Source of the DNA: Bdellovibrionota bacterium
GTDB lineage: Bacteria > Bdellovibrionota_C > UBA2361 > CALJRW01
Length of the DNA: 64,000 nucleotides
Direction of reading: 5' to 3'
Assembly (NCBI GenBank): GCA_041740355.1
Contig: JBGSMD010000063.1
Coordinates: 96,001-160,000 of the forward strand
Within the stretch, counting starts at the first letter, position 1; each line of letters opens with the position of its first letter. Under the pieces are notes generated by a model, which was not told where the DNA came from, searched no databases, and saw nothing but the letters and a program-made list of their open reading frames with translations. The translations under genes and the position numbers were made by a program. This document shows positions 1-12,071 of this stretch, piece after piece.

Positions 1-2
1 GG

Positions 3-605
3 GATAAGGATAAGCTAAATCAGCTTCTTAATACTTATCAAGAAAAAATTTTGGAACGCGATCTTAAATTCCACCCAGACAAAGATCTATTCCTGAAAAT
101 CGGACCAACTTTAGCAAGCTCCAAAGATTCGCCCTATCAAAGCAAAAAAGTATTTGATTACCTAGGTTACCAAATTAGCGACGAAGGACTTATCTTCCTA
201 AAGTCTTATAAATTTAAAAAACTAAAAAAGGATATTAAGAGTAGACTATTCAACTCCTATCGCACATATTACCGTGCTGGACTAAGTAAGGATCTGCAAA
301 TGTCTAATCTGATTAAAGACCTAAATGGTACGATGCGAGATTTAAATTACTATAATCATTTCGCCGATCTTGTCCTATTCACGACTGATAAACCACGACT
401 TAAGGAATTTGATATTTGGATTGCTCAAACAATTATTGCCATGACTCATAACTGTTCTCGCGCTAATGCGTTTGGGAAAATTTCCTACAGACAAATACGC
501 GAGGCAGGTCTATTCTCGATTCTAAATTACAAGAATATTTATCCTAGAAGAAATGAAGTTCTCCGATCTACAAAAAATCTCCAAAGCAGATCAGCAACGA
601 CGTAA
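3..605 (+). CDS. Reverse transcriptase, C-terminal part (5' truncated by window edge)
   Basis: Frame is open from base 3 (DKDKLNQLLNTYQEKILERDLKFHPDK...). LKFHPDK resembles RT motif 6 (L.lh.eK) and VFDYLGYQI resembles RT motif 7 (F.FLGY), followed by a basic thumb-like region. The catalytic YxDD would lie just upstream of the window and is not visible. Confidence 0.8.
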   Translation, partial: DKDKLNQLLNTYQEKILERDLKFHPDKDLFLKIGPTLASSKDSPYQSKKVFDYLGYQISDEGLIFLKSYKFKKLKKDIKSRLFNSYRTYYRAGLSKDLQMSNLIKDLNGTMRDLNYYNHFADLVLFTTDKPRLKEFDIWIAQTIIAMTHNCSRANAFGKISYRQIREAGLFSILNYKNIYPRRNEVLRSTKNLQSRSATT

Positions 606-2787
606 TCTTGTCCGTAAAGGACTAGAGCAGTATGATCTCAGATCCTACTTACGCTACTTAAGGTATCGAATTAAATGGCCAATACTTTTTAAGTTACTTT
701 CTCGACTAATTGTTATTGTTGAAGTGATTCTAATTCAACAACTATTTACTTATAATATTTTTGCAGACTTAACTCTCTATATTTTCATTATTTTTATCAG
801 TCGAAGCGCCCTAAAAGGTATTACTCAATACTATCGTGTGCAACTAATGCCCCTAGCGACGGCAAAAAACATTTCTGGCCTAAATATCGCCCTAAGTAAG
901 GCTCTGATCATAAACATCTTTTCTGCCTTTTTATTAGCCTTGGTCATTAGCATTCTTTGTCTACTCTTAGATTTATCGGATCAGTTAAACACTTACTTTA
1001 TAATTTCCTGGTGCTTATTAATCCCGCTAGAGCAAATTACCACGCAGCTTTGGAATACCGTCTATCTTAATACCCGACTAAGGCGAAGTGCCTTGATTAC
1101 TTTCATTTGCCGCATGCTTCCAATCATTTCACTATTAGCTTTTAGCAGCTTGATTGGCCCCCTAAGTTACATTCTGGGTACATTTATGGCGAGATTATTA
1201 GAAAGTTTTTACTTATCGCGTGTCGCAATTTTAGCATTAAAGTTCAAATTTACATTAAAGAAGAAATCGAGCAGTTTGTTACAAGTTATCGGACAGTATT
1301 TTAAAAATCAAAAGGCGCGCCAATACCTTTACTTTAATGCCATCCTACCCTGTTATTTTTTGGGTCTTGGATTAATCATCTTTGAACGGGGAGTCGGTAC
1401 CTGGATTACAAATATTATTTATTTTTTTATTTTAAATTTTGCAGTTTTTTTTACTACACAAATTTCACGCTCAATTCAATTTGACATCTACTCCTGCTTT
1501 AAAAAAGGGCAGGTAAAAAAAGCAACGTTCTTAGGCAAAAGAATTGTAAAATATACTTTGAACTTTGCTGTAATTCTAGCAGCTAGCTTTATCTATTTAC
1601 TCTTAAATTCCAAAAGGTTTTACCTTTTCATACCAATTAGCTTAGAATATTTTCTATTAATCTTACCCTTGGCAGTAATTGCTCAAACGTTTTTTTTTTC
1701 GATCTATGCCCAAATCCAATCCCTAGCAATCGATCGTTATTTCACCAAGCTAATCTTCATTAGCTTCCTCCTAATAGGCTTACCAATTCAGTTCCTTCTA
1801 TTTCATTATTACCTCGCAAATCTACAAGCGATCTACTGGACTGAAATCCTTCTCTTTGTGTTTGTAGGTACACTATTATATTTAAATTTGAACTTTAATC
1901 TCAGTCCCTTTTTAATAAAGTATATCAAAAGAGAGCGGAAGGCTCTGCCCCTGTGCCAACCAACTGCACTCCAATTAGAGCTCCGAACTAAATATATCAA
2001 AACTGGCTCAGCTTATCTTTACATATTATCTTATTATGAGCGGGATGCTTTCTGGGAACGCATTAAGTATTCACTTCCCCAAACAAAAGATTTCTTAATT
2101 ACCCGGTACTCTGCTGGGCTCTTCCTGCTTTCATCTCATCAACCACTGACGGATCTTGATTTTCGCAACCTAAGCTTTGTTGCCAAAAAGCAAATAGATT
2201 TAAGCCAAGAGCTACTGCAGACTTTACTGGATATTTATACTTTTTACTATTCTCTAGAATTTAGAAATAGCTCATTCCAAAAAATACGTAATAAGTTCTA
2301 TCTTAATAGATCCATCAAAGAAGAATTGTATCAGTTAGCGGAATTAAAGAGGCCAGTAGATCAAATAATATCAGAGTTGCTTGGAGCTCCTAGGATCGTC
2401 TTCAAAAATGGTAAAATTTCTTGTTTGGGCAAAGTCAGTAATAAACTTTATAATTTTGCTTTGAACCAATATTTTTATCCTGACAATAACTTGGCTCCCG
2501 CAATTCAAGGATCCCAATTAACAATCAGAATTAATAATACGGAAACAATTAGTTTCGACTTAAGGCACTTGAATAGTTACCTAATTGGACAAGTTAATAA
2601 AAAGATTTTTTTCCTCAATCAATATTATTATTTTAAGAATATTATTGATCCCCATTTGCCATATGCAGCTAGCATTCAAGATTATTTAATAGCACGGAGA
2701 CTGATTCATAAACATACCCGTCGCTGTAAAACGAGAAAGGCTGACCATTTAGCAGATCTCAATTTTTATAATCATAAATTAGTATGA
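553..2787 (+). CDS. Polytopic membrane protein, MATE/Wzx (MOP flippase)-like N-terminal ~450 aa plus ~290 aa soluble C-terminal domain
   Basis: About 12 hydrophobic segments in two halves, each with a MATE-like amphipathic linker (LATAKNISGLNIALSKALIINIF; CFKKGQVKKATFLGKRIVKYTLNF). Overlaps the RT 3' end by 53 nt. Fold assignment is by eye. Confidence 0.55.
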   Translation: MKFSDLQKISKADQQRRNLVRKGLEQYDLRSYLRYLRYRIKWPILFKLLSRLIVIVEVILIQQLFTYNIFADLTLYIFIIFISRSALKGITQYYRVQLMPLATAKNISGLNIALSKALIINIFSAFLLALVISILCLLLDLSDQLNTYFIISWCLLIPLEQITTQLWNTVYLNTRLRRSALITFICRMLPIISLLAFSSLIGPLSYILGTFMARLLESFYLSRVAILALKFKFTLKKKSSSLLQVIGQYFKNQKARQYLYFNAILPCYFLGLGLIIFERGVGTWITNIIYFFILNFAVFFTTQISRSIQFDIYSCFKKGQVKKATFLGKRIVKYTLNFAVILAASFIYLLLNSKRFYLFIPISLEYFLLILPLAVIAQTFFFSIYAQIQSLAIDRYFTKLIFISFLLIGLPIQFLLFHYYLANLQAIYWTEILLFVFVGTLLYLNLNFNLSPFLIKYIKRERKALPLCQPTALQLELRTKYIKTGSAYLYILSYYERDAFWERIKYSLPQTKDFLITRYSAGLFLLSSHQPLTDLDFRNLSFVAKKQIDLSQELLQTLLDIYTFYYSLEFRNSSFQKIRNKFYLNRSIKEELYQLAELKRPVDQIISELLGAPRIVFKNGKISCLGKVSNKLYNFALNQYFYPDNNLAPAIQGSQLTIRINNTETISFDLRHLNSYLIGQVNKKIFFLNQYYYFKNIIDPHLPYAASIQDYLIARRLIHKHTRRCKTRKADHLADLNFYNHKLV

Positions 2788-4514
2788 AATCCAAAAGTTT
2801 AATCTACTTTATTTTCATTTTACTAAGCTTAATTATTGGACTATCGCTCCACGCTGAGAGAATCGAAATACCTCTTTACGTTCTACGAAAAGCAATTACT
2901 TGTTCTAGTGTTCAAGAGAAAACATTGGAAGTTGTTTTCCAAAACAAGTCTTATTTGATCGCATTTGACCATATTTACAGTACTCCCGTTATTAATGCAG
3001 GTTTAGTCTGTCAACGTTTGATCCGCTACTTAAAAGCAGCGCCTTCGCCCAATTTAATCATCCCTATCTCCAAAAAATATACCAAGTTCGGCCATGATAT
3101 TTATGTCGATGAATCAGGATTTTTAGAAAAAGCTTGCCTAGAACAAGGGCTTTGTAAGCGAAACATCTTGGATACTTTTAAGCCCAAAAAAATACTCCGT
3201 GAATGTCATGGGAAAATTACACTAAACGGCTTATTGGCAAAATCTCGTCCCAAAATTCCTGGCTATCAAACAAAAATCATTAAAGATGTTACAATTAAAA
3301 TTCACCCATTTCATCCATTTATCAATATTCTAAATGAATACCTTCAAGATCCAATTTTAAAGGAAATTCATGCCTCTACTATGTCAATTGGTAATCAAGC
3401 CCTAGACGATATTTCTGCCAGCACGCAAAGCTACAATAAAAAGGCTGTAATTAATTATGATGCCGGAATTTCATTGTTCAATTCTCAACAAGGCCAAATT
3501 GCTAAGGCTATTACTAAGTCACCTAAAGTTCATTTTTTACCAATGACCAGTGGTAATAATTTTAGCCAATTTTATCACATCAAATTTATTGCTAGCCCAC
3601 AAACTAACAAGTCAATGTTGGCCTCAATGAATTTAGCCTCAGTAGATCGAACAGCATATCTCGACCTAAATTTTTTCTTTGAGGATCCTACTATTCGCGA
3701 TGAGTTTTTATCCATCTCAAATAATAATAATCGAAGATTTTGTGATTATTCTGAAGATTATGACTGCTTAGCAAATTTTTATGATGAAAGATCAAAATCC
3801 CATATTCCACTGGTAATAAATAGAAGTTGTCCGACAAGCAATACCGAAACTACTATCAAAAGATCTGGTTACTTTGTAAACTCCGAAGATGATGATCTCA
3901 AACAATTTGTGATAAACTTTATTAATCAAGCAAAACAAGAAATCATTGTAACTTCCTACAAGTTAACAGAAAGAGCCATTGCCAAGGCCTTATTAAACAA
4001 GCAGCAAGAAGGGCTTAAAGTTCACGCCATGTTAGCCTTTAAATCTCCCGCATTGGGCGAATTGAAAAGCCATTTCTACTCGGGGGAAGTTGTTAAGGAA
4101 GAGTATCCTTTTCCTCACATGAAAATTATTATTATCGATCGCCGACTAATGCTATTTGGAACTGCGAACTTCACGATTAATGCTTTAAATAATACAACTG
4201 AATTAATTGGAGTTACTGATAATCAGCAAGCAATTAAAACAGCGTTAGATCATGTCGCAGTTTTTACACAGTCCAAAGATCTGGCCTTAAGTAAAAACAT
4301 TTCCAATACTCCTAAGCAGAAAAATTATGTAGCAGTGACGAGCTCTACGCAGATCAAACCAGTGAATTTACCTTTTACTAAACCGCTTGAGCAGAAATGG
4401 TTATCAAACTACCGAGAGGTAACAAAGGAAGGCGAAAAATTATTAGATAAGTGTGATTTAAGGCACCTTATTTTTATAACTAAGGCAACTTATTTGGAAT
4501 GTCTTAAAAAATAA
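2784..4514 (+). CDS. Exported phospholipase D-superfamily protein with degenerate SNase-like N-terminal domain
   Basis: Signal peptide MKSKSLIYFIFILLSLIIGLSLHA. Two HKD-type motifs: YHIKFIASPQTNKSMLASMNL (Asp missing) and PHMKIIIIDRRLMLFGTANFT. FINQAKQEIIVTSY is typical of Nuc-type PLD. ATGA overlap with upstream gene. Confidence 0.8.
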   Translation: MKSKSLIYFIFILLSLIIGLSLHAERIEIPLYVLRKAITCSSVQEKTLEVVFQNKSYLIAFDHIYSTPVINAGLVCQRLIRYLKAAPSPNLIIPISKKYTKFGHDIYVDESGFLEKACLEQGLCKRNILDTFKPKKILRECHGKITLNGLLAKSRPKIPGYQTKIIKDVTIKIHPFHPFINILNEYLQDPILKEIHASTMSIGNQALDDISASTQSYNKKAVINYDAGISLFNSQQGQIAKAITKSPKVHFLPMTSGNNFSQFYHIKFIASPQTNKSMLASMNLASVDRTAYLDLNFFFEDPTIRDEFLSISNNNNRRFCDYSEDYDCLANFYDERSKSHIPLVINRSCPTSNTETTIKRSGYFVNSEDDDLKQFVINFINQAKQEIIVTSYKLTERAIAKALLNKQQEGLKVHAMLAFKSPALGELKSHFYSGEVVKEEYPFPHMKIIIIDRRLMLFGTANFTINALNNTTELIGVTDNQQAIKTALDHVAVFTQSKDLALSKNISNTPKQKNYVAVTSSTQIKPVNLPFTKPLEQKWLSNYREVTKEGEKLLDKCDLRHLIFITKATYLECLKK

Positions 4515-4521
4515 AAGAAAA

Positions 4522-4651
4522 AAGAGTTGGGCGGAATTTAACGCTTACCTGCTCTATAATATCTGCCGTCAGAACCTGCACCTTTCTCCGAAGGCGTATT
4601 TACAGATCCCCCTTGCGTTTGGAGAAGCCCGAAGGCGACAACCCAACTCTT
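4522..4651 (-). ncRNA. Putative ~130-nt structured ncRNA of unknown family (strand uncertain)
   Basis: Perfect 10-bp terminal inverted repeat AAGAGTTGGG (4522-4531)/CCCAACTCTT (4642-4651). Internal stem 4584-4596/4614-4626. GCC-UUCG-GGC hairpin on minus strand (4627-4636). GC-rich island in AT-rich DNA, with a U-tract after the minus-strand 3' end. Confidence 0.6.
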
Positions 4652-4657
4652 AATTTA

Positions 4658-4687
4658 ATATTACCATAGCAATTTAACGATAAACAA
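4658..4687 (-). promoter_or_regulatory. Sigma70-type promoter candidate for the ncRNA
   Basis: Minus strand TTGTTT (4687-4682), 18-nt spacer, TG-g-TAATAT extended -10 (hexamer 4663-4658). Predicted +1 near 4651, the first base of the terminal stem. AT-rich context makes chance matches possible. Confidence 0.45.
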
Positions 4688-4731
4688 TGATTTATTTTTA
4701 AAGTTCTAAGAAAGGAATGTAATTAAAAGTT

Positions 4732-5310
4732 TTAGTTCGACTCAACCTTTTGCATTTTCTTCATGTGGATTTGATAAAGCTCTTCTTTGCCATAATCTTC
4801 TAACTCACGTGAGCGACTCATTAAGGTTTCTTTATCTTCAATATAAAGTCTTGGATCCGGATGGTGGACTTCGGGGTGAAGTCCCGTGTCCATTCGAATG
4901 GCATCTACTGGGCAGGCTTCCACACAAAAACCACAATAGATACAAAGCAAAGTATCAATCTCATATCGTCTCGGGAACTTTTCAATTTCAGGATCATCGT
5001 GCTCTGCCGCTTCAATGTAAATACACTTTGCCGGACAAGCAGTTGCACAAAGAAAACAGGAGGTACATTTAACACTACCTTCCGATGTAAGAGTTAAACG
5101 ATGACGACCCCGATATCGCTCTGGGTAATCACGGCGCTCATTGGGATATTGAATCGCAACATCAGCAGCAATATTTTTGGCGAGACCAACTGTATGTAAG
5201 ACATGTAAGGAAAAATTCTTAGCAAGCTTGGTGAAAGTGAAGGCAACACCCTTAGCTACCTCAATCAGGTAGATCTTTTCCCAAAAATTCATTTCTTCAC
5301 GACGTCTCAT
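4732..5310 (-). CDS. nuoI: NADH-quinone oxidoreductase subunit I
   Basis: QYPNE..RYRGRHRL plus two 4Fe-4S motifs, CTSCFLCATACP and CIYCGFCVEACP. Confidence 0.95.
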   Translation of the reverse strand: MRRREEMNFWEKIYLIEVAKGVAFTFTKLAKNFSLHVLHTVGLAKNIAADVAIQYPNERRDYPERYRGRHRLTLTSEGSVKCTSCFLCATACPAKCIYIEAAEHDDPEIEKFPRRYEIDTLLCIYCGFCVEACPVDAIRMDTGLHPEVHHPDPRLYIEDKETLMSRSRELEDYGKEELYQIHMKKMQKVESN

Positions 5311-5379
5311 AAGGCAAATTTATAGCCTATTTTTTAAGTGGGAACAACAAGCTCTGGAACATGCAATTAATAAGAATTC

Positions 5380-7533
5380 TTAAAATTCTTGATGATGGCT
5401 CTTGCCTCGGGGCTCGTTCCGATAGGTTCGATCTTTGGGACTTGGCTTACTCGGCTTATGATTTGCTTCTCCTCGTAATAATCCACCAAGCTTCTGTCTC
5501 ACCATTTGAGGCCCATTAGTTTGATACCATTTGGCACTTACTCTAACCCCAAAATGGATCAGTGGGATGAGCTTTGGTTTTTCAGGATCTTTATAAGAAA
5601 CAACATCAAAGGGCATACCACTTACTAAGCGAGTGCCCCGAGGCAAAATGGAACTTCGATCTAAAATCCTTTGTAAATTATCCTGACTTCCCGCGGCGAG
5701 ATAAACAGTGCCTTTGTCAGTTTTTTTAGAACTAAAAAGTGCGTCACAACCAGACCAGATTGATTCTAGGACTGCTTGATGAATTGTCTCGTCCATATGA
5801 CGAATTGGATATTTTTCTAAGTCTAATTTAAATCTGCGAAGTAAAACTTCCTTAAGTTCGGTACAACGTCTCATACTAACAGAGTCAATACCACATTTGG
5901 CTTGTGACTCGGGAGACATGCCAATTGCCGACTGAAATACCAAAGCTTGCGCGATAGCATCAGAATCCTTTTCGTCATCACAAAGTATCTTCCAATCTTT
6001 ACTACTACTATTTACAACACCACCATTTTCTTGAACGACAGCAACATCAATTGCCAAGCGAAGAATTTCGAAATCCTCATAGGCAACAGACTTTTGTTGT
6101 GCCGTGATTAACATCTTTCCAATTCGAACATCCACTGGCAGATTCGCAACAGCCTTTCCTTCTGTTGTAATATGCCCTTTTGGTCCACATAAATTTAAAT
6201 TTTGCAGAACCCTGAAAGTTTCATCCATTCTTTTTTTGGTAATCCTACTTGGAAATGGCAAGCGCTCAATAGCTTCGCGATTTGGCAGAACTGGACTACT
6301 GATTAATCGTAGAAATAAACTTTCCAACCTAGAATTTTGAATATCCGCTGGTGGTTCAGGGTCTAAATAACGATGCGGTGTTTCGCCATGATAAATAAAT
6401 TTTCCCGGATGAGTCCTTCCGGCGCGTCCTTTTTCTTGAGTAAAATTAAATTTAGAAATCGCCATCAATCTTAAACACGGCACGCCATTCTCAACTACAA
6501 TCCGCTTAACTAATCCAGACATAATGACTAAGTCGATATCTGGAATTGTAATACTTGCTTCGGCAACGTTTGTAGCCAAAACAATTTTTGGTACATCATA
6601 TTTCGCCATTGTTCTTTGCTGCTCCGCAGAGGAAAGCTTAGAATGCAGAGGCATAACAGCAGCGGACATCCCTTCTTTCGCTAAGGCGGCATTTATTGCA
6701 GTTTCCATCTGACTAATCTCATGTTTTCCAGGAAGAAAAATGAGCGTATTTTCACCACGCCTCACAGCGTCGACAGCATCCGCTAAAATAGATTTACCTT
6801 TCTCTCTTTCGTCTACTCGAAAAGTTCGACCAGGAACCTTGATCACTGGAGTGGCAAGACCAAAGACTTTTCTCACTTTATCGGTATTCAGTGTTGCCGA
6901 CATAATCACTAATTTAGGCTTAGGGCCTTTAGGATTCTGAAGCTCTTGAAGGAACATGGCTAGTAATGTTTCCATGTACATGTTTTTTTCGTGAGCTTCA
7001 TCAATCACATAAACGGTACCTTGATCCGAACCTCTATGCCCACCTAATTTTTGTGCTAAAAGTAAACCATCTGTTAAATATGTTACCTTACTAAGCGCAT
7101 TGCAGCATTTGCCGAAACCATGCTGAAAGCCGACTTCCTCTCCAAGTTCTGTGCTGTTCTTAGCTGAGACGTAGGTTGCTAAGTTAACAGCCGCCATTCG
7201 ACGAGGTTGTGTCACCACGACTCGATAACCAAGATCGGCCAGAAACATTGGTACTTCGGTGCTTTTCCCAGAACCAGTTTCTGCTTGAATTACAGTCACG
7301 TTATTATTTAATACCGCACGCTGAATTCTGGCTTTGTAGGCCATGATTGGCAGCTCGCCATTTGTTGTAATAGGTTCAATTTTTGGTTTTACAATATCGC
7401 GAGCAGGAAATCGACCTTGGATTTCACGTGGATTTGGGAAAGTAATCCGGGGGATATGATACTGTGTATGTTTAGGCTGATTTCTTTTACTGTCCCTTAG
7501 GGCTCTTCCACCCTGAGTATTAACTCCTGCCAT
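5380..7533 (-). CDS. DEAH-box RNA helicase, HrpA/HrpB-like
   Basis: AETGSGKST, TQPRRMAA, IDEAHE, MSAT, IFLPG, ATNVAEASITIPD, QEKGRAGR and HA2-like LPVDVRIGKML. Confidence 0.9.
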   Translation of the reverse strand: MAGVNTQGGRALRDSKRNQPKHTQYHIPRITFPNPREIQGRFPARDIVKPKIEPITTNGELPIMAYKARIQRAVLNNNVTVIQAETGSGKSTEVPMFLADLGYRVVVTQPRRMAAVNLATYVSAKNSTELGEEVGFQHGFGKCCNALSKVTYLTDGLLLAQKLGGHRGSDQGTVYVIDEAHEKNMYMETLLAMFLQELQNPKGPKPKLVIMSATLNTDKVRKVFGLATPVIKVPGRTFRVDEREKGKSILADAVDAVRRGENTLIFLPGKHEISQMETAINAALAKEGMSAAVMPLHSKLSSAEQQRTMAKYDVPKIVLATNVAEASITIPDIDLVIMSGLVKRIVVENGVPCLRLMAISKFNFTQEKGRAGRTHPGKFIYHGETPHRYLDPEPPADIQNSRLESLFLRLISSPVLPNREAIERLPFPSRITKKRMDETFRVLQNLNLCGPKGHITTEGKAVANLPVDVRIGKMLITAQQKSVAYEDFEILRLAIDVAVVQENGGVVNSSSKDWKILCDDEKDSDAIAQALVFQSAIGMSPESQAKCGIDSVSMRRCTELKEVLLRRFKLDLEKYPIRHMDETIHQAVLESIWSGCDALFSSKKTDKGTVYLAAGSQDNLQRILDRSSILPRGTRLVSGMPFDVVSYKDPEKPKLIPLIHFGVRVSAKWYQTNGPQMVRQKLGGLLRGEANHKPSKPSPKDRTYRNEPRGKSHHQEF

Positions 7534-7763
7534 ACGACCACTTCCTCTTTACGACAAAACATTTCTAAAAACTCGGTAAGTTTTGAAATGTTTTTGGTTA
7601 AATCTGGAAGAAAAAATCTGCAAGTCTAACCCTACTAAGATTCAATCTTATTAAAAGTTCTATATTGAATATGATCACTAAGCAAGATTTATTATTTTGT
7701 GTTTAGCTAAAAAAAATGTTGACAGAAAAATCAAAAGTTCAAGATTTTAAGTGAATGATTCTT

Positions 7764-7898
7764 TAGTTATGACAAAAAGTAATTTCCAAATATTTCAAAG
7801 GTAGTTTTTTGTCATAACTATATGATATTATTATCCCTCCGGGGGATAGTAAGCCCCAAAAAGTAATTCCAAACAGAAATTACTTTTTAGGCTTACTA
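7764..7898 (+). repeat. Dispersed ~135-bp three-hairpin repeat, copy A
   Basis: TAGTTATGACAAAAA..TTTTTGTCATAACTA, TATCCCTCCGGGGGATA and TAGTAAGCC..GGCTTACTA. Homologous to copies at 11004, 37525 and 45648. Confidence 0.85.
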
Positions 7899-7916
7899 AA
7901 TTTGTCCTTGATTAAA

Positions 7917-8807
7917 CTACAAACACTCTTGTAATTTTTTTAGTAACTTCATTGCGGCAACTGGAGTTGGTCCACAGATCAAATGATAACCAACCACATA
8001 ATCTTTGCAAGCAACAGCAATGTCTCGACATAATTTAAAAGAAAACTCTCCAAGATCAGCTTCTGGATCTGCTTCCGCCATCGCAATTAGCTCCGGTGAA
8101 ATTTTAATTCCGGGAACATTTTGAAAAGCCAAAGCATTGCGCCCCTTGCGAAAAGGTAAGAGTCCAAGAAAAAGTGGCACTCCAACTTCGCTAGCTGCTT
8201 TGAAAAAACCAACAGCTTGATCAACATCAAAGACTGGTTGACTGAGTGCATACTGCGCTCCAGCTAATTTTTTCTTTTCTAACTTTCTAAGTTCTGGTCC
8301 TGGGTTGCGAACATTTGGATTCACAACACAACCAGGGATGATAGCCGGCGCACCTTCTAGATCATTCCCGGCTAAATCCTTGCCAGCATTAAGAGTCTTA
8401 ATGGTATCTAGTAATCCCACAGAGTTAACTTCGAACACACCCTTACAATCTTTGTTATCACCAACACTGATCGCATCACCAGTTAGGGCGATAATATGAT
8501 TAACCCCCAAACTACCAGCGGCAAGCAACTCTCCTTGCATGGCAATTAAATTACGATCTCGACAGGAGAGGTTAACCATCGTCTCAACTCCATAACGCTC
8601 TTTAAGTTTAGAAGCGAAGACAATTGGGTTCATCCGCATGCGAGCTAGAGCCGAATCGGTAACATTTAAATAATCAATTTGGCCAAGATACTTATCAAGC
8701 CTAGCAAACACCTCATCTGAGGAAATTCCCCGAGGGGGATTCACTTCTAGGCAGAATAGCTTTTTATTTTCTTGAAAATTTAAGGATTTAGGGGAGAAAT
8801 TGCTCAT
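7917..8807 (-). CDS. metF: Methylenetetrahydrofolate reductase (YitJ C-terminal type)
   Basis: EVNPPRG, NVTDSALARMRM, SCRDRNLIAMQ, ALTGD, GVFEVNSVGL and SQPVFD. Confidence 0.9.
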   Translation of the reverse strand: MSNFSPKSLNFQENKKLFCLEVNPPRGISSDEVFARLDKYLGQIDYLNVTDSALARMRMNPIVFASKLKERYGVETMVNLSCRDRNLIAMQGELLAAGSLGVNHIIALTGDAISVGDNKDCKGVFEVNSVGLLDTIKTLNAGKDLAGNDLEGAPAIIPGCVVNPNVRNPGPELRKLEKKKLAGAQYALSQPVFDVDQAVGFFKAASEVGVPLFLGLLPFRKGRNALAFQNVPGIKISPELIAMAEADPEADLGEFSFKLCRDIAVACKDYVVGYHLICGPTPVAAMKLLKKLQECL

Positions 8808-8984
8808 TTCTGAGTAAATAATACAGAGAGGGCGAAAAGTCTATTAGCCACTGATAGTTAGCTATCTGAGTAAATTCTGTTATTTGAAAAAGACCTTAAT
8901 GGAGATTATACTCAAAAAGCATTGTAATCTTCGAAAAATGAAAGTATACAATATGACGTGTCATTTTAAACATTGTGTATTTTC

Positions 8985-9593
8985 ATGAGCTTACAAGTTG
9001 AAGTTTTTTATTCCTTTCAGAGTCCTTACTCTTACCTAGCCTTAGAGTCGATCTATAATCTAGAAAAAAAGTATGATATCGACCTTTTGTGGCAACCATT
9101 TTCTGCTAAAGCTAGCGGTCAACAAGCTCCCTCAGGGATGACTGTCTTGCCTGAAAAGTTCTCCTATCTTATTGAAGATACTAAGAGATTTGCTACTAAG
9201 ATGAATTTACCGCTGGAATTTCCAGAAAATTGGCCTAATGAAGAATTCGATCCAGGTCGAGTTTGTCGTGGAGCACTCGTTGCAAACGATCTTGGTGTCC
9301 TAATGGAATATAACTATAAAGTTTTTCAGTGTTGGTGGGGAGAAGGTCGCGATCCAAATACAGACGAATTTACTTCTGAACTATGTGAAGACTTAGACAT
9401 TGAACTAGGTGATTACATCAGTAAGTCTTCTGCTAGTGAAATCCGTCAAAGACTGAAAGCTATTTACCACCGTGGACGTAAAATGGGTGTATTTGACACT
9501 CCAACTATTGTTATCAACCAAGAAAGATTCTACGGAATCGACAAAGTTCCATATGTTGATGAATATCTTAAATCTCTTAACTTAGGGATTTAA
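8985..9593 (+). CDS. DsbA-family / 2-hydroxychromene-2-carboxylate isomerase-like protein
   Basis: FYSFQSPYSYLA and GVFDTPTIVINQERFYGIDK. ATG at 8985 preferred over TTG at 8973. Confidence 0.85.
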   Translation: MSLQVEVFYSFQSPYSYLALESIYNLEKKYDIDLLWQPFSAKASGQQAPSGMTVLPEKFSYLIEDTKRFATKMNLPLEFPENWPNEEFDPGRVCRGALVANDLGVLMEYNYKVFQCWWGEGRDPNTDEFTSELCEDLDIELGDYISKSSASEIRQRLKAIYHRGRKMGVFDTPTIVINQERFYGIDKVPYVDEYLKSLNLGI

Positions 9594-9599
9594 TCGCAC

Positions 9600-10319
9600 G
9601 TGCCCTCCCGAATCTTTGTTAACTCACTTAATAGTTGGCAAAGCGGTGAGGGCATTTTATTATCTAAAGATCAGACACATTACCTTACTAGGGTTCTTCG
9701 CCTTAAGGAATCAGATCAAATTGAAGTGGTTAATAAATCCACTGCCCAAGTATTTTTAGCTGAGCTTCTTCCGGCGGAAAGCACAGCGATCCTTACCTCT
9801 GAAATTTCAAACTCCAAATTTAACACTAAATTAAATCTAATTTTTGCTTACTGCAAAAGTGATAAGAATGAATTAATAATAGAGAAAGGCACGGAACTAG
9901 GAGTTGATAATTTTATTATCTATCAAGCAAAACACTCCATCGCCAAGCTAAGTCCCAATAAGTCAGAACGTTTAGAAAAAATTGCCGAAGCTGCTTCTTG
10001 CCAGAGCAAAAGAAACACCCTACCCAAGATACACTTAGCGGAGAGTCAAACGAAATTACACACAAGCTTACAGGCTTTAACGATTGGAAGATCGCTCTCA
10101 CTAATCGCCTCGTTGGAAGTAAAGCAATTACCCATACCAAACAATATAAGCGACTACTTAACAATTAATTTTGCAGTTGGACCAGAAGGTGATTTCACCA
10201 CAGAGGAGTACAAACTTTTTAAAGATTTTGGATTTCTGCCGATTAGCTTAGGTAGAAATATTCTAAGATCAGAGACAGCCGCAATTGCTGGGATCTCCTA
10301 CATAAATATTCTCAGATAA
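9600..10319 (+). CDS. rsmE: 16S rRNA m3U1498 methyltransferase
   Basis: HYLTRVLRL, KGTELGV, VGPEGDF and LGRNILRSETAA. Confidence 0.95.
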   Translation: MPSRIFVNSLNSWQSGEGILLSKDQTHYLTRVLRLKESDQIEVVNKSTAQVFLAELLPAESTAILTSEISNSKFNTKLNLIFAYCKSDKNELIIEKGTELGVDNFIIYQAKHSIAKLSPNKSERLEKIAEAASCQSKRNTLPKIHLAESQTKLHTSLQALTIGRSLSLIASLEVKQLPIPNNISDYLTINFAVGPEGDFTTEEYKLFKDFGFLPISLGRNILRSETAAIAGISYINILR

Positions 10320-10321
10320 GA

Positions 10322-10804
10322 TTAAGTTATATTTTGGTAATCTAAAACCTTAAAAAGCTCCTTCATTTTTTGATATCGATAATCAAAAATGTTCTTAAGC
10401 TGATTCTTTACCAACAACTCTCTCGCTATTTGACCAAAGATGCCACAAGGCATTCCATAATGAACTAAATCTTCTACCACCAAGCCTTGATCTGTTTTTC
10501 TAAATGAATGTTGATGGTGCCAAAACTTATAAGGTCCAAAGCGCTGCTCATCTATAAAATACTCCCGATCTTTAACCTGGGTAATTTCCGTCACCCATTG
10601 CATTGGGATTCCAAGTAAAGGATAGACTCGATACTCTATTATCTTGCCAGGATATATTCTTCCATCTTCTGCGCCAGATATAAATTTAAAGTTTAAAAAC
10701 TCAGGTGTAATAATCTTCAGATTCATCGGATTACTAAAGAAGTCCCAAATAGTTTCCAGATCTTCATTTAGGATAAATCTTTCTTTGATCTGATAAATTT
10801 TCAT
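10322..10804 (-). CDS. SRPBCC/START-like family protein
   Basis: WDFFSNPMNLKIITP and FIDEQRFGPYKFWHHQH. Confidence 0.85.
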   Translation of the reverse strand: MKIYQIKERFILNEDLETIWDFFSNPMNLKIITPEFLNFKFISGAEDGRIYPGKIIEYRVYPLLGIPMQWVTEITQVKDREYFIDEQRFGPYKFWHHQHSFRKTDQGLVVEDLVHYGMPCGIFGQIARELLVKNQLKNIFDYRYQKMKELFKVLDYQNIT

Positions 10805-11003
10805 AAAATATTGCTTTGATTATAATACTAGCCACTTTACTGATGAATCTTTTCAAATAAAGATTACTTACTAAATTAAGTATCTATGACGTAAGAACTA
10901 GATTAAATTGCACAACTTTTCTTAGATTAGGATATTCAAATTCAATCGCTGTCCAAGTAAATTTGCAAACTGCCAAAAAGTGTATCGCTGCGGATGAGTT
11001 TTA

Positions 11004-11145
11004 TAGTTATGACAAAAACTAATTTCCGAATATTTAAAAATTAGTTTTGTGATTTTTGTCATAACCGTATGATTTTATAACGCTTGCGGGGGATAGTAAG
11101 CCCCAGAAAGTAATTCCTATTGGAAATTCCTTTCTGGACTTACTA
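11004..11145 (+). repeat. Dispersed three-hairpin repeat, copy B
   Basis: Begins TAGTTATGACAAAAACTAATTTCC and contains GGGGGATAGTAAGCCCC, as in copy A. Confidence 0.85.
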
Positions 11146-11408
11146 TAGTATATTTATTTTGCTCAGATTCTAAGTTTATTTTATAAGGTCTAGAGACTTA
11201 TGCGAACCCCTTGGGTCACATCAAGCACTTTATGCTTGAGATACGAGGCAACCAGATCTTATTAAGGAAAGTTTCAATGTCGCCTAGTATATTCTTGGAT
11301 TTAGACTAAAGCTGGACTATTTGAGCTTAAAAATTAATGTTTGTTAAATATAATGTCGAACAATTATTAGCTTTCAAATTTAACTTAAACGACTTAATAA
11401 ATACAAAA

Positions 11409-11962
11409 ATGAAACTCCAAAACTCTAAAGCTCTAAAGCTCAACATAGATTTACCTTAGTTGAGCTTTTAGTAGTTACTGCAATTATTGGTATCCTAGCC
11501 TCAGTCAGTGTGGCCAACTATGATGAATATAAAGCTAAGGTAAATGATACTCGGGCTGAGTTAACTGGTAGAAATTTAATTACGGCGGGAGAAGTCCACT
11601 TGAATGATTTAAGAGATCTACAATCGACGAATTCCCTGACATCGTCAGTTGCCTATAGCCCAATGGAGGGTAATGAATATTTAACATCAGGAGGACATTC
11701 TCTAGACATCAGATCCCTAATCTCACCAGCCCTACTTCAAGGAAACGATCTATTCTTTAATATGATGGTCGAAATGCGCAGCGCATCTCATGCCGCTAGC
11801 AGTGCAGGATTAAGAGAAAGTATTCTAATTAATATTCTAGCTTGTGGAGGAAATAATCTTTTCCATATGAATCATACGAACTTATATAATCACAATACAA
11901 TTCACCTAGATAGCTCCCCAGGAAGTACAGTTCCGGCATTAAGATCTATGTTCTGCGGTTAG
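11409..11962 (+). pseudogene. Type IV pilin-like gene with frameshifted leader
   Basis: FTLVELLVVTAIIGILASVSVANYDEYK begins at 11450, in frame with ORF 11510-11962. ATG 11409 is out of frame because of a tandem CTCTAAAG duplication (11423-11438). The -1 residue is Arg (AGA), not Gly. Confidence 0.75.
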
Positions 11963-12071
11963 TTTCTAAATAGCTTGTATTGTTAAGTTATTTTAAAGAT
12001 CGATAATTTTACCTCTCTAACGACTTGTAAATAGGTATTAAATTTGCTAATTATCCCAGTCTACAAAGTTT

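Follow-up and report, generated by a model that had tools for sequence, protein, structure and literature searches.

A conserved structured RNA element associated with a reverse transcriptase, membrane protein and PLD operon of a Bdellovibrionota bacterium: a candidate partner RNA of the enzyme

Systems in which a reverse transcriptase (RT) works with a non-coding RNA (ncRNA) are known from defence, as retrons, DRT2, DRT3, DRT9 and DRT10, and each makes DNA in a different and unexpected way. The subject of the present analysis is a 64,000-nucleotide (nt) stretch of a Bdellovibrionota genome (contig JBGSMD010000063.1, positions 96,001-160,000; the whole of it is called the window, and coordinates are positions in it unless a locus label is given). 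It contains, just past the last gene of a three-gene operon that encodes an RT, a membrane protein with a MOP-superfamily fold and a PLD-superfamily protein, an element of ~130 nt on the opposite strand. Comparison among related loci shows that this element is conserved, that it goes with a subfamily of RTs and that it is inverted here relative to its counterparts. The stretch read from 4651 to 4522 on the minus strand is interpreted, with somewhat more confidence than doubt, as the gene of a structured ncRNA of ~130 nt that would be the cognate RNA of the adjacent operon's RT; by analogy with characterized systems, it is probably a trans-acting RNA that serves as scaffold and template.

The comparison is based on 11 RT-MOP-PLD systems, namely those of the window, of a genome of the same genus (G002), of two further contigs of the window's own genome (C11 and C16; the genome, G000, measures 3.27 Mb), of two genomes of the same class (G009 and G024) and of loci L017, L020, L022, L033 and L085. 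The C11, C16, G009 and G024 systems came from a search of the phylum with the membrane protein and the RT alignment; the five L loci are from named metagenome-assembled genomes (MAGs), of which 46 loci were considered. The element and its predicted parts, all on the minus strand, are located as follows.

4522..4651, minus strand: structured RNA element, read 5'→3' from 4651 to 4522; single copy, no Rfam match
4641..4651, minus strand: P1 5' arm, AAGAGUUGGGU, pairing with 4522-4532
4627..4636, minus strand: P2 hairpin, GCC-UUCG-GGC
4621..4626, minus strand: pyrimidine 6-mer UUCUCC, pairing with GGAGAA (4584-4589) in the P5 loop as a predicted pseudoknot
4602..4610, minus strand: P4 5' strand, GGGAUCUGU, pairing with GCAGGUUCU (4571-4579); four of the nine pairs are G·U
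4580..4595, minus strand: P5 apical hairpin, GCCU-UCGGAGAA-AGGU, with its loop at 4584-4591
4533..4570, minus strand: variable 3' region, ending in the single-stranded tract GUUAAAUUCCG (4532-4542) beside the P1 3' arm
4503..4521, minus strand: U-rich tract, UUUUUCUUUUAUUUUUUAAG, directly past the P1 3' arm and abutting the PLD stop codon
4658..4687, minus strand: promoter-like stretch seen by eye, TTGTTT (4687-4682), 18 nt, TGG-TAATAT (4666-4658), 6 nt, then the first stem base, 4651

The initial annotation of this DNA had described a set of short features, and all of them are present where it had placed them. They comprise the closing stem AAGAGTTGGG (4522-4531) / CCCAACTCTT (4642-4651), for which a repeat finder gives 10 of 10 complementary positions and which extends to 11 base pairs (bp) when a terminal G·U is counted; an inner imperfect stem at 4584-4595 / 4615-4626 (12 nt, 83% complementary by the same program); the GCC-UUCG-GGC hairpin of the minus strand; the complementary segments ATCTG (4561-4565) and CAGAT (4603-4607); two copies of ACCTGC, at 4547 and 4574; and the direct repeat CCGAAGGCG at 4588 and 4629, with a spacing of 41 nt, a repeat of at least 9 nt being found in 11 of 500 mononucleotide shuffles. 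The fold proposed here would consist of P1, the tetraloop hairpin P2 and a long P4-P5 hairpin whose apical loop would pair with the 6-mer, followed by the variable 3' region. RNAalifold pairs UUCUCC with a nearby GGGGGA; since the latter forms the P4 5' strand in all elements, that pairing was rejected and P4 plus the pseudoknot preferred.

The same plan recurs in related systems. GC-rich islands bounded by terminal inverted repeats of 9-10 bp lie upstream of the RT gene, on its strand, in C11, C16 and G024, and they have one order of parts in common with the minus strand of the window: P1, then a short hairpin whose loop is stable (UUCG, GAAA or GCAA), a pyrimidine 6-mer, and P4 enclosing P5, which has a loop of 8 nt that can pair with the 6-mer (predicted pseudoknot). 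The P2 position is taken by GCC-GAAA-GGC in C11 and by GAGC-GCAA-GCUC in G024, a helix equivalent to P4 is found with a helix descriptor in G002, C11, C16, G024, L017, L022, L085, L020 and L033, and the complementarity between 6-mer and P5 loop amounts to 5 or 6 bp in 10 of 10 elements. Altogether the architecture is present in 10 of the 11 systems, which agrees with the proposal of the initial annotation that a structured RNA belongs with the adjacent RT and should be met near its homologues. In eight of the ten it precedes the RT gene on the strand of that gene (by 44-339 nt in seven, and in L020 overlapping an open reading frame (ORF) call that starts too early); in two, the window and G002, it is inverted and lies downstream of the PLD gene. 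In C16, the RT and PLD genes are divergently oriented, with the element between them.

In the MAFFT alignments of the elements (A5, A7-A10), helix strands are 1-3 columns out of register, and a helix descriptor (P1 / P2 / Y6 / P4[P5] / pseudoknot, with Y6 for the pyrimidine 6-mer) was therefore used instead of a formal covariation count on ten elements. Anchored on P1, the descriptor matches the sense strand of five close elements and of L017, L022 and L085, none of 26 antisense strands, and 2 of 4000 elements with dinucleotide-shuffled interiors. Freed from P1 it gives 95 matches in 1.84 Mb of loci and also recognizes the RT strand just before the RT in L020, where an 11-bp closing stem is concealed by the too-early ORF call, and in L033; the matches on the RT strand before an RT are exactly those of C11, C16, G024, L017, L020, L022, L033 and L085. 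Within 300 nt upstream on the RT strand, no descriptor match occurs at the 41 RT loci of L014-L058 in which no PLD gene was seen. In an alignment of four elements (A3), the paired cells amount to 91.6% and five pairs show changes in both partners, values reached by 0 and 1 of 500 shuffles, respectively, the structure so tested being derived from the same four sequences. For P1, 8 of 8 pairs are kept in this alignment and 4 are changed on both sides. A pseudoknot pair that is U-A in the window is C-G in C11 (columns 64/102), and a G·U of P5 in the window is G-C in G002 (columns 94/109).

In a quick maximum-likelihood tree that covers 48 RTs (seven rows, truncated or outlying, were excluded, and the careful tree search is unfinished), the 11 PLD-bearing RTs fall together on one side of a branch with an SH-aLRT of 89, where 14 rows are found. 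Since the window's RT is nested among systems with an upstream element, the inverted position is derived.

Conservation between the two genomes of the genus points to selection on the element itself. Its core (4566-4651) is identical at 80 of 86 positions between G000 and G002 (93%), against 72% for the RT gene, 64% for the membrane-protein gene, 66% for the PLD gene and 64% for the 3' flank; the stretch 4532-4565 is 62% identical, with insertions and deletions. In G002, the element is again found directly past the PLD gene of the same operon, inverted, with a different downstream neighbour, and in both genomes it sits between convergent genes. A third variant is provided by 151-nt contigs from runs X6 and X8 (freshwater sediment, another study), whose similarity is confined to 4569-4650 (52 nt with one other letter in X6, 82 nt with four in X8) and which diverge on either side, at 4569 into the variable 3' region; their loose end reads ..TATGGTATTCT.. 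at the place of the window's promoter-like stretch. A tract resembling 'CAAAUU..CC' precedes the 3' arm in many family members, by eye. Counting that of the window, the own genome has three RT / MOP-like / PLD systems that are paralogous, and an element belongs to each of them (the others at L064 4703-4837, plus strand, and L065 10622-10822, minus strand). The stems of these elements differ in sequence, which suggests that the genome holds three mutually specific RT-RNA pairs. In G002, a 12-bp inverted repeat, AGGGTTAAGGTT/AACCTTAACCCT (L013 5228-5239 / 5462-5473), lies upstream of the RT, with an arm resembling the C16 closing stem GGGTTAGGG; it was dropped as an RNA element, its 3' arm being inside a 164-amino-acid (aa) ORF and its interior AT-rich.

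Known families and repeats do not account for the element. The initial annotation had considered that it might turn out to be a housekeeping RNA or a dispersed repeat; with Rfam 15 no match was obtained in positions 1-12000 of the window at E ≤ 1, save a chance snoU85 match elsewhere in the window, eight related loci gave no family at gathering score except one tRNA in L033, and the element is the one match at E < 0.01 in the 3.27-Mb genome.

Several features converge on the minus strand, towards which the initial annotation already leaned. The descriptor matches only this strand of the window, and all helices common to the systems form on it. The four G·U pairs of P4 become A·C mismatches on the plus strand, the substitutions of G002 preserve P5 (G·U to G-C, C-G to U·G) and a -10-like hexamer is seen by eye 4-7 nt ahead of P1 in the window, G002, C11 and C16 (in G002, TGA-TATCAT at 7 nt). 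The architecture thus assigns the putative RNA to the minus strand. The suggestion that part of it folds as RNA and part as complementary DNA (cDNA) is not supported and not needed. The G·U of the long stem that had been noted as favouring the plus strand lies in a stem extension that is not seen by eye in C11. As for expression signals, the minus strand carries TTGTTT-N18-TGGTAATAT six bases ahead of the stem, a weak-consensus match made by eye, and a U-rich run follows the other end (4521-4503); a consensus scan calls neither a promoter nor a terminator in 4300-4900.

The genes of the operon, which overlap one another, are as follows.

1..605, plus strand: 3' part of the RT gene, which starts 726 nt before the window (L009 11274-12605, 443 aa)
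553..2787, plus strand: polytopic membrane protein of 744 aa, overlapping the RT gene
2784..4514, plus strand: PLD-superfamily protein of 576 aa (PLDc_2 at 2.4e-16; DrmC/NucT-like below cut-offs)

The RT is recognized by Pfam RVT_1 at 1.4e-19, and its YGDD motif is invariant across the RT alignment (A2). For the membrane protein and for 32 homologues, no Pfam, NCBIfam or PADLOC family was found. An AlphaFold2 model (mean pLDDT 72.6, about 90 for residues 1-450) predicts a transporter fold of the MOP superfamily (MATE/Wzx/MurJ) for residues ~1-450, the C-terminal ~290 residues being assigned to no fold; Foldseek against the PDB returns MATE, WzxE and MurJ at the top (E down to 1e-6, TM-score to the target ≤0.67), and the ESM Atlas search the same families. 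The PLD protein has two HxK motifs, one N-terminal hydrophobic segment in a Kyte-Doolittle scan and conserved cysteines, features from which it is probably exported; H265, K267, H445 and C573 are invariant in 10 homologues. The second motif is PHMK (HxK) in closer homologues and HHER in more distant PLD-bearing loci, and the two branches may differ in chemistry.

The RT family is large (388 cluster representatives at E ≤ 1e-30), and protein P0004 is an RT 52% identical to that of the window; a scan of metagenome contigs with the RT alignment found no relative. In the 46 named MAG loci, nearly every RT is followed by a protein of 600-830 aa with 6-12 hydrophobic segments, and PLDc_2 marks the third gene in L017, L020, L033 and L085, and weakly in L022. 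To judge by record titles, the named loci of the wider family belong mostly to MAGs of lineages that are predatory or intracellular (Bdellovibrionota, Myxococcota, Coxiellaceae, Legionellales and Rickettsiales). One Polyangiaceae MAG contig (L018) carries two RT genes of the family, 3040-4317 and 8125-9501, 4 kb apart.

By profile scores, the RT lies outside the named groups. Of the NCBIfam models, that of the group II intron RT/maturase scores highest, with 107 bits where the cut-off is 300, and of the PADLOC models RT_UG26 does (9e-33, about 110 bits). The PADLOC models for UG26, CRISPR-associated RT, UG17 and Drt9 give about 80-110 bits for the window's RT and 16 relatives, RT_UG17 (87 bits) and Drt9 (82 bits) doing no better than the UG26 or CRISPR-RT models. 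NCBIfam Drt2 does not match the window's RT and, of three RTs scanned, matches only that of G024, at 58 bits where the cut-off is 390. Among solved structures, sequence comparison ranks highest group II intron RTs and an RNA-dependent DNA polymerase of 499 aa (9ioa/9nlv), with E about 1e-19; the latter, which we take to be DRT9, is the PDB match of longest coverage.

Judged on these features, the system is of the kind in which a structured ncRNA is associated with an RT; the element most resembles the DRT9 and DRT10 ncRNAs, and the system is a member of no named family. The class-2 UG RTs DRT2, DRT9 and DRT10 are described as requiring structured ncRNAs of similar size that hold the template between short repeats, with a stable stem as its boundary (PMC12632851; PMC9226505; bioRxiv 2026.04.29.721553). 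The Eco3DRT10 ncRNA, as presented there, has 137 nt and forms one large stem decorated with small stem-loops, its template loop is poorly conserved, and a connection of class-2 UG RTs and their ncRNAs with telomerase is drawn in the DRT10 paper (PMC12632851). With DRT10 (UG17) and DRT9 (UG28), the present system shares a structured ncRNA of similar size that is intergenic beside an RT of ~430-500 aa, a membrane effector gene in the operon, weak conservation of the ncRNA sequence between subtypes, and the presence of UG17, Drt9 and UG26 among the best PADLOC matches of the RT. It differs from them in that the RT scores are far too low, in a MOP-fold protein of roughly 650-800 aa and a PLD instead of SLATT (absent here, the gene after the RT encoding the MOP-fold protein, which has 600-830 aa and 6-12 segments and gave no notable Pfam family in 33 homologues), in an RNA with a predicted pseudoknot, without an Rfam model and without an A-B-A' template found in it, and in the position of the window's RNA gene, which is downstream and on the other strand.

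For DRT2, an ncRNA upstream of the RT is reported, with short repeats at the template ends that let the cDNA jump back and so yield concatemers (bioRxiv 2026.04.29.721553). The window's 9-nt repeats, 41 nt apart, could by analogy allow such a jump; unlike in DRT2, the RT has no Drt2 model match, and the repeats are not general in this RNA class.

Membership among the retrons, as the initial annotation had implied, is not upheld, the RT lying outside the retron clade with 34.4 bits on NCBIfam retron_St85_RT (cut-off 235). The element does recall a retron msr-msd: terminal inverted repeats close an RNA that stands beside the RT (in 8 of 10 systems it precedes the RT in the same sense), and the closing stem of 10-11 bp, as in retron a1/a2, is kept through compensatory changes in the paralogues. 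However, no Rfam retron family is matched, and a G lying 0-3 nt past the 5' arm in the five closest elements is lost in distant ones (absent from L017, L018, L021, L022 and L025; by eye). To our knowledge, the accessory genes are unlike any known retron effector set.

Group II intron and G2L RTs provide the best NCBIfam model and the top PDB sequence matches. The present RT departs from group II introns by its score below the cut-off and by the lack of intron RNA domains (no Rfam match around the RT), and from G2L RTs, described as without associated RNA structure (PMC8632793), by the associated RNA structure. A closing helix, a predicted pseudoknot and a single-stranded tract beside a stable stem also recall the telomerase RNA core, a resemblance of layout only, with no template or repeat product known here. 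In the literature searched, which did not take in the UG gene-cluster tables of the PMC9226505 supplement, no account turned up of an RT encoded together with a MOP-like protein and a PLD, nor of their RNA.

How such a system might work can be outlined from these comparisons. The RNA would be transcribed from its own promoter and would act in trans, the RT would bind it through the conserved 5' two-thirds and would copy a short stretch of it into DNA, as the DRT2, DRT9 and DRT10 RTs do with their ncRNAs, and the membrane protein and the PLD would form the effector arm. That the RNA contains a template is proposed because of the kinship with DRT2, DRT9 and DRT10. Two stretches are candidates. 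One, as we infer, is the variable 3' region past P4 (4533-4570). The other is the 41-nt unit between the two copies of CGCCUUCGG, both of which show the same C-to-U change in G002, each change also fitting the local structure. This unit is stop-free in every frame, in the cDNA sense, in G000 and G002, which by estimate would happen by chance in roughly one case in seven. The longest repeat is 6 nt or less in five of eight other elements, that of L033 (7 nt) is at shuffle level and only that of C16 is clearly longer. The C16 element contains an insertion of 70 nt with two copies of the 12-nt direct repeat GCUAACUACUUA at a distance of 17 nt (L065, about 10682-10699, minus strand; no repeat of this length in 500 shuffles), which may represent an A-B-A' template pattern. 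Short A-B-A' patterns (2-5 nt) seen by eye in 3' regions were discounted, as they are too frequent by chance in AU-rich sequence.

A number of observations weigh against the interpretation as a minus-strand partner and template RNA. Folding z-scores favour the plus strand both on 151 nt (-3.13 against -1.42 for minus) and on 130 nt (-2.67 against -1.57), and the C16 element folds far better in antisense (-76.5 against -53.6 kcal/mol); thermodynamics is nevertheless not decisive for the strand. To these is added the consensus scan that was negative for promoter and terminator. The descriptor was written by eye from near relatives and L017 was inspected before it was run, so that its independent tests are limited to L020, L022, L033 and L085. 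With a loose P1 it is unspecific in the AT-rich genome (72 matches in 6.5 Mb), GC-rich helices being found in only three of these matches, each at an RT system. The paralogous elements do not find one another by nhmmer (best cross-hit E 0.13, not significant), and R1, a covariance model built from four sequences, recovered only these four over 822 kb, G024 scoring 7.2 bits. G009 has the three genes and no recognizable element on its 10.8-kb contig, a look-alike hairpin (L066 2917-2940) having been rejected, being without partner sequences. The RT is not a member of any characterized DRT family by score, and the DRT analogy is therefore one of kinship and not of membership. Finally, the template is not pinned down, long direct repeats being confined to the lineage of the window and G002 and to C16.

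Other readings of the element were set against this one. The RNA might be the partner of the RT without being its template, as a scaffold, a regulator or an antitoxin-like brake on the RT or the effectors, the RT priming and polymerizing without copying it. Some prokaryotic RTs, of the AbiK type, do work without a template; the best conserved part of the RNA is its structured 5' two-thirds, which has no obvious template, and no general A-B-A' repeat was found. Against this, DRT2, DRT9 and DRT10, three of the characterized ncRNA-bearing relatives, use their ncRNA as template, and a variable 3' region beside a stable stem fits the poorly conserved template loop reported for DRT10 (PMC12632851). 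This reading is considered unlikely, though it keeps real weight. A cis-acting leader or attenuator of the RT operon, of which the window would hold a displaced copy that is decaying or reused, is suggested by 8 of 10 systems, in which the element directly precedes the RT and shares its strand. Yet the displaced and inverted copy is the best conserved sequence of its locus (93% against 64-72%), it is conserved in the third variant (X6/X8), no second copy exists upstream of the window's RT, and from the opposite strand 5 kb downstream no such action is possible. Relocation and inversion away from the RT leader thus argue against a purely cis-acting leader, which is regarded as very unlikely, and the naturally relocated inverted copy is an argument for action in trans.

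Slightly less credit still is given to a feature of the plus strand, either a structured 3' untranslated region or an unusual, perhaps bidirectional, terminator between the convergent PLD and NuoI-like ferredoxin genes. The convergent arrangement in both G000 and G002, the A-rich and T-rich runs that flank P1 and the better plus-strand z-score speak for it; however, the scan found no terminator, termination needs no interior of 110 nt conserved at 93%, the downstream neighbour is another one in G002, where the element still accompanies the operon, and the common architecture forms on the minus strand only. Scarcely any belief is left for an element acting as DNA, whether a small mobile element (miniature inverted-repeat transposable element, MITE) or a recombination or inversion site. 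It has 10-bp terminal inverted repeats, a 13-nt inverted repeat (4503-4515 / 4691-4703) flanks it, and its place and orientation have changed relative to the paralogues, but it has one copy by sequence in 3.27 Mb, only three copies combine the architecture with a GC-rich P1, each at an RT system, its internal helices show compensatory changes, and no transposase or recombinase is adjacent.

The interest of the RNA-partner interpretation lies in what it brings together. A large RT family outside all named groups is paired with a MOP-fold membrane protein, and one branch of it adds a putatively exported PLD and a pseudoknot RNA; this RNA has no Rfam match, and for the protein families PADLOC, Pfam and NCBIfam give weak matches or none. 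For the RNA, a concrete model (P1, P2, P4, P5 and pseudoknot), a strand and ten natural variants are available. If it is a template, the known range of programmed bacterial DNA synthesis would be wider, and such synthesis would be linked for the first time, among the literature found, to an extracytoplasmic effector arm. A more speculative extension, judged quite unlikely, is that the RT and the pseudoknot RNA form a telomerase- or DRT10-like particle whose DNA, instead of serving within the cell, would be passed to the MOP-fold protein, acting like a flippase or exporter, and would be processed or attached outside the cytoplasm by the PLD, in an exported or envelope-linked DNA pathway; with the RNA gene inverted and convergent, transcripts reading through from the operon could also base-pair with the RNA and so adjust its amount.

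Beyond the PLD-bearing branch, upstream elements are also seen at RT-MOP loci in which no PLD gene was noticed, mostly from Myxococcota MAGs.

L018 2894-3014: second-form upstream element
L023 9311-9456: second-form upstream element
L025 9674-9812: second-form upstream element
L037 9821-9945: second-form upstream element
L044 4840-4966: second-form upstream element
L047 9582-9726: second-form upstream element
L035 482-612: second-form upstream element
L053 9590-9684: second-form upstream element

Inside a closing stem of 9-14 bp they have a first hairpin and then a long one with the cap GAGNC-YGCG-GNCU, the YGCG cap being recognized by eye in 8 of 13 aligned upstream elements from loci without a PLD gene seen, and they may make up a second class of RNA in this RT family. 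A closing helix of at least 12 bp occurs in 9 of 49 300-nt stretches before an RT against 12 of 490 controls, the loci not being independent and three being near-identical. A structured element with a long closing stem thus goes with the RT family at large, in at least two forms.

Some minor observations concern the surroundings of the element. The 13-nt inverted repeat 4503-4515 / 4691-4703 (92% complementary, AT-rich) brackets both the element and the promoter-like stretch; it may be due to chance, or could be a trace of the event by which the RNA gene was inverted. Run X2 shares its study with the likely source; its contigs end at 4525 and restart at 4671, just around the element, from which no conclusion is drawn, inversion polymorphism included. 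At higher coordinates than the element lie minus-strand genes for a NuoI-like 4Fe-4S ferredoxin protein (4732-5310) and an HrpA/HrpB-like DEAH helicase (5380-7533), neighbours that do not adjoin the operon in G002.

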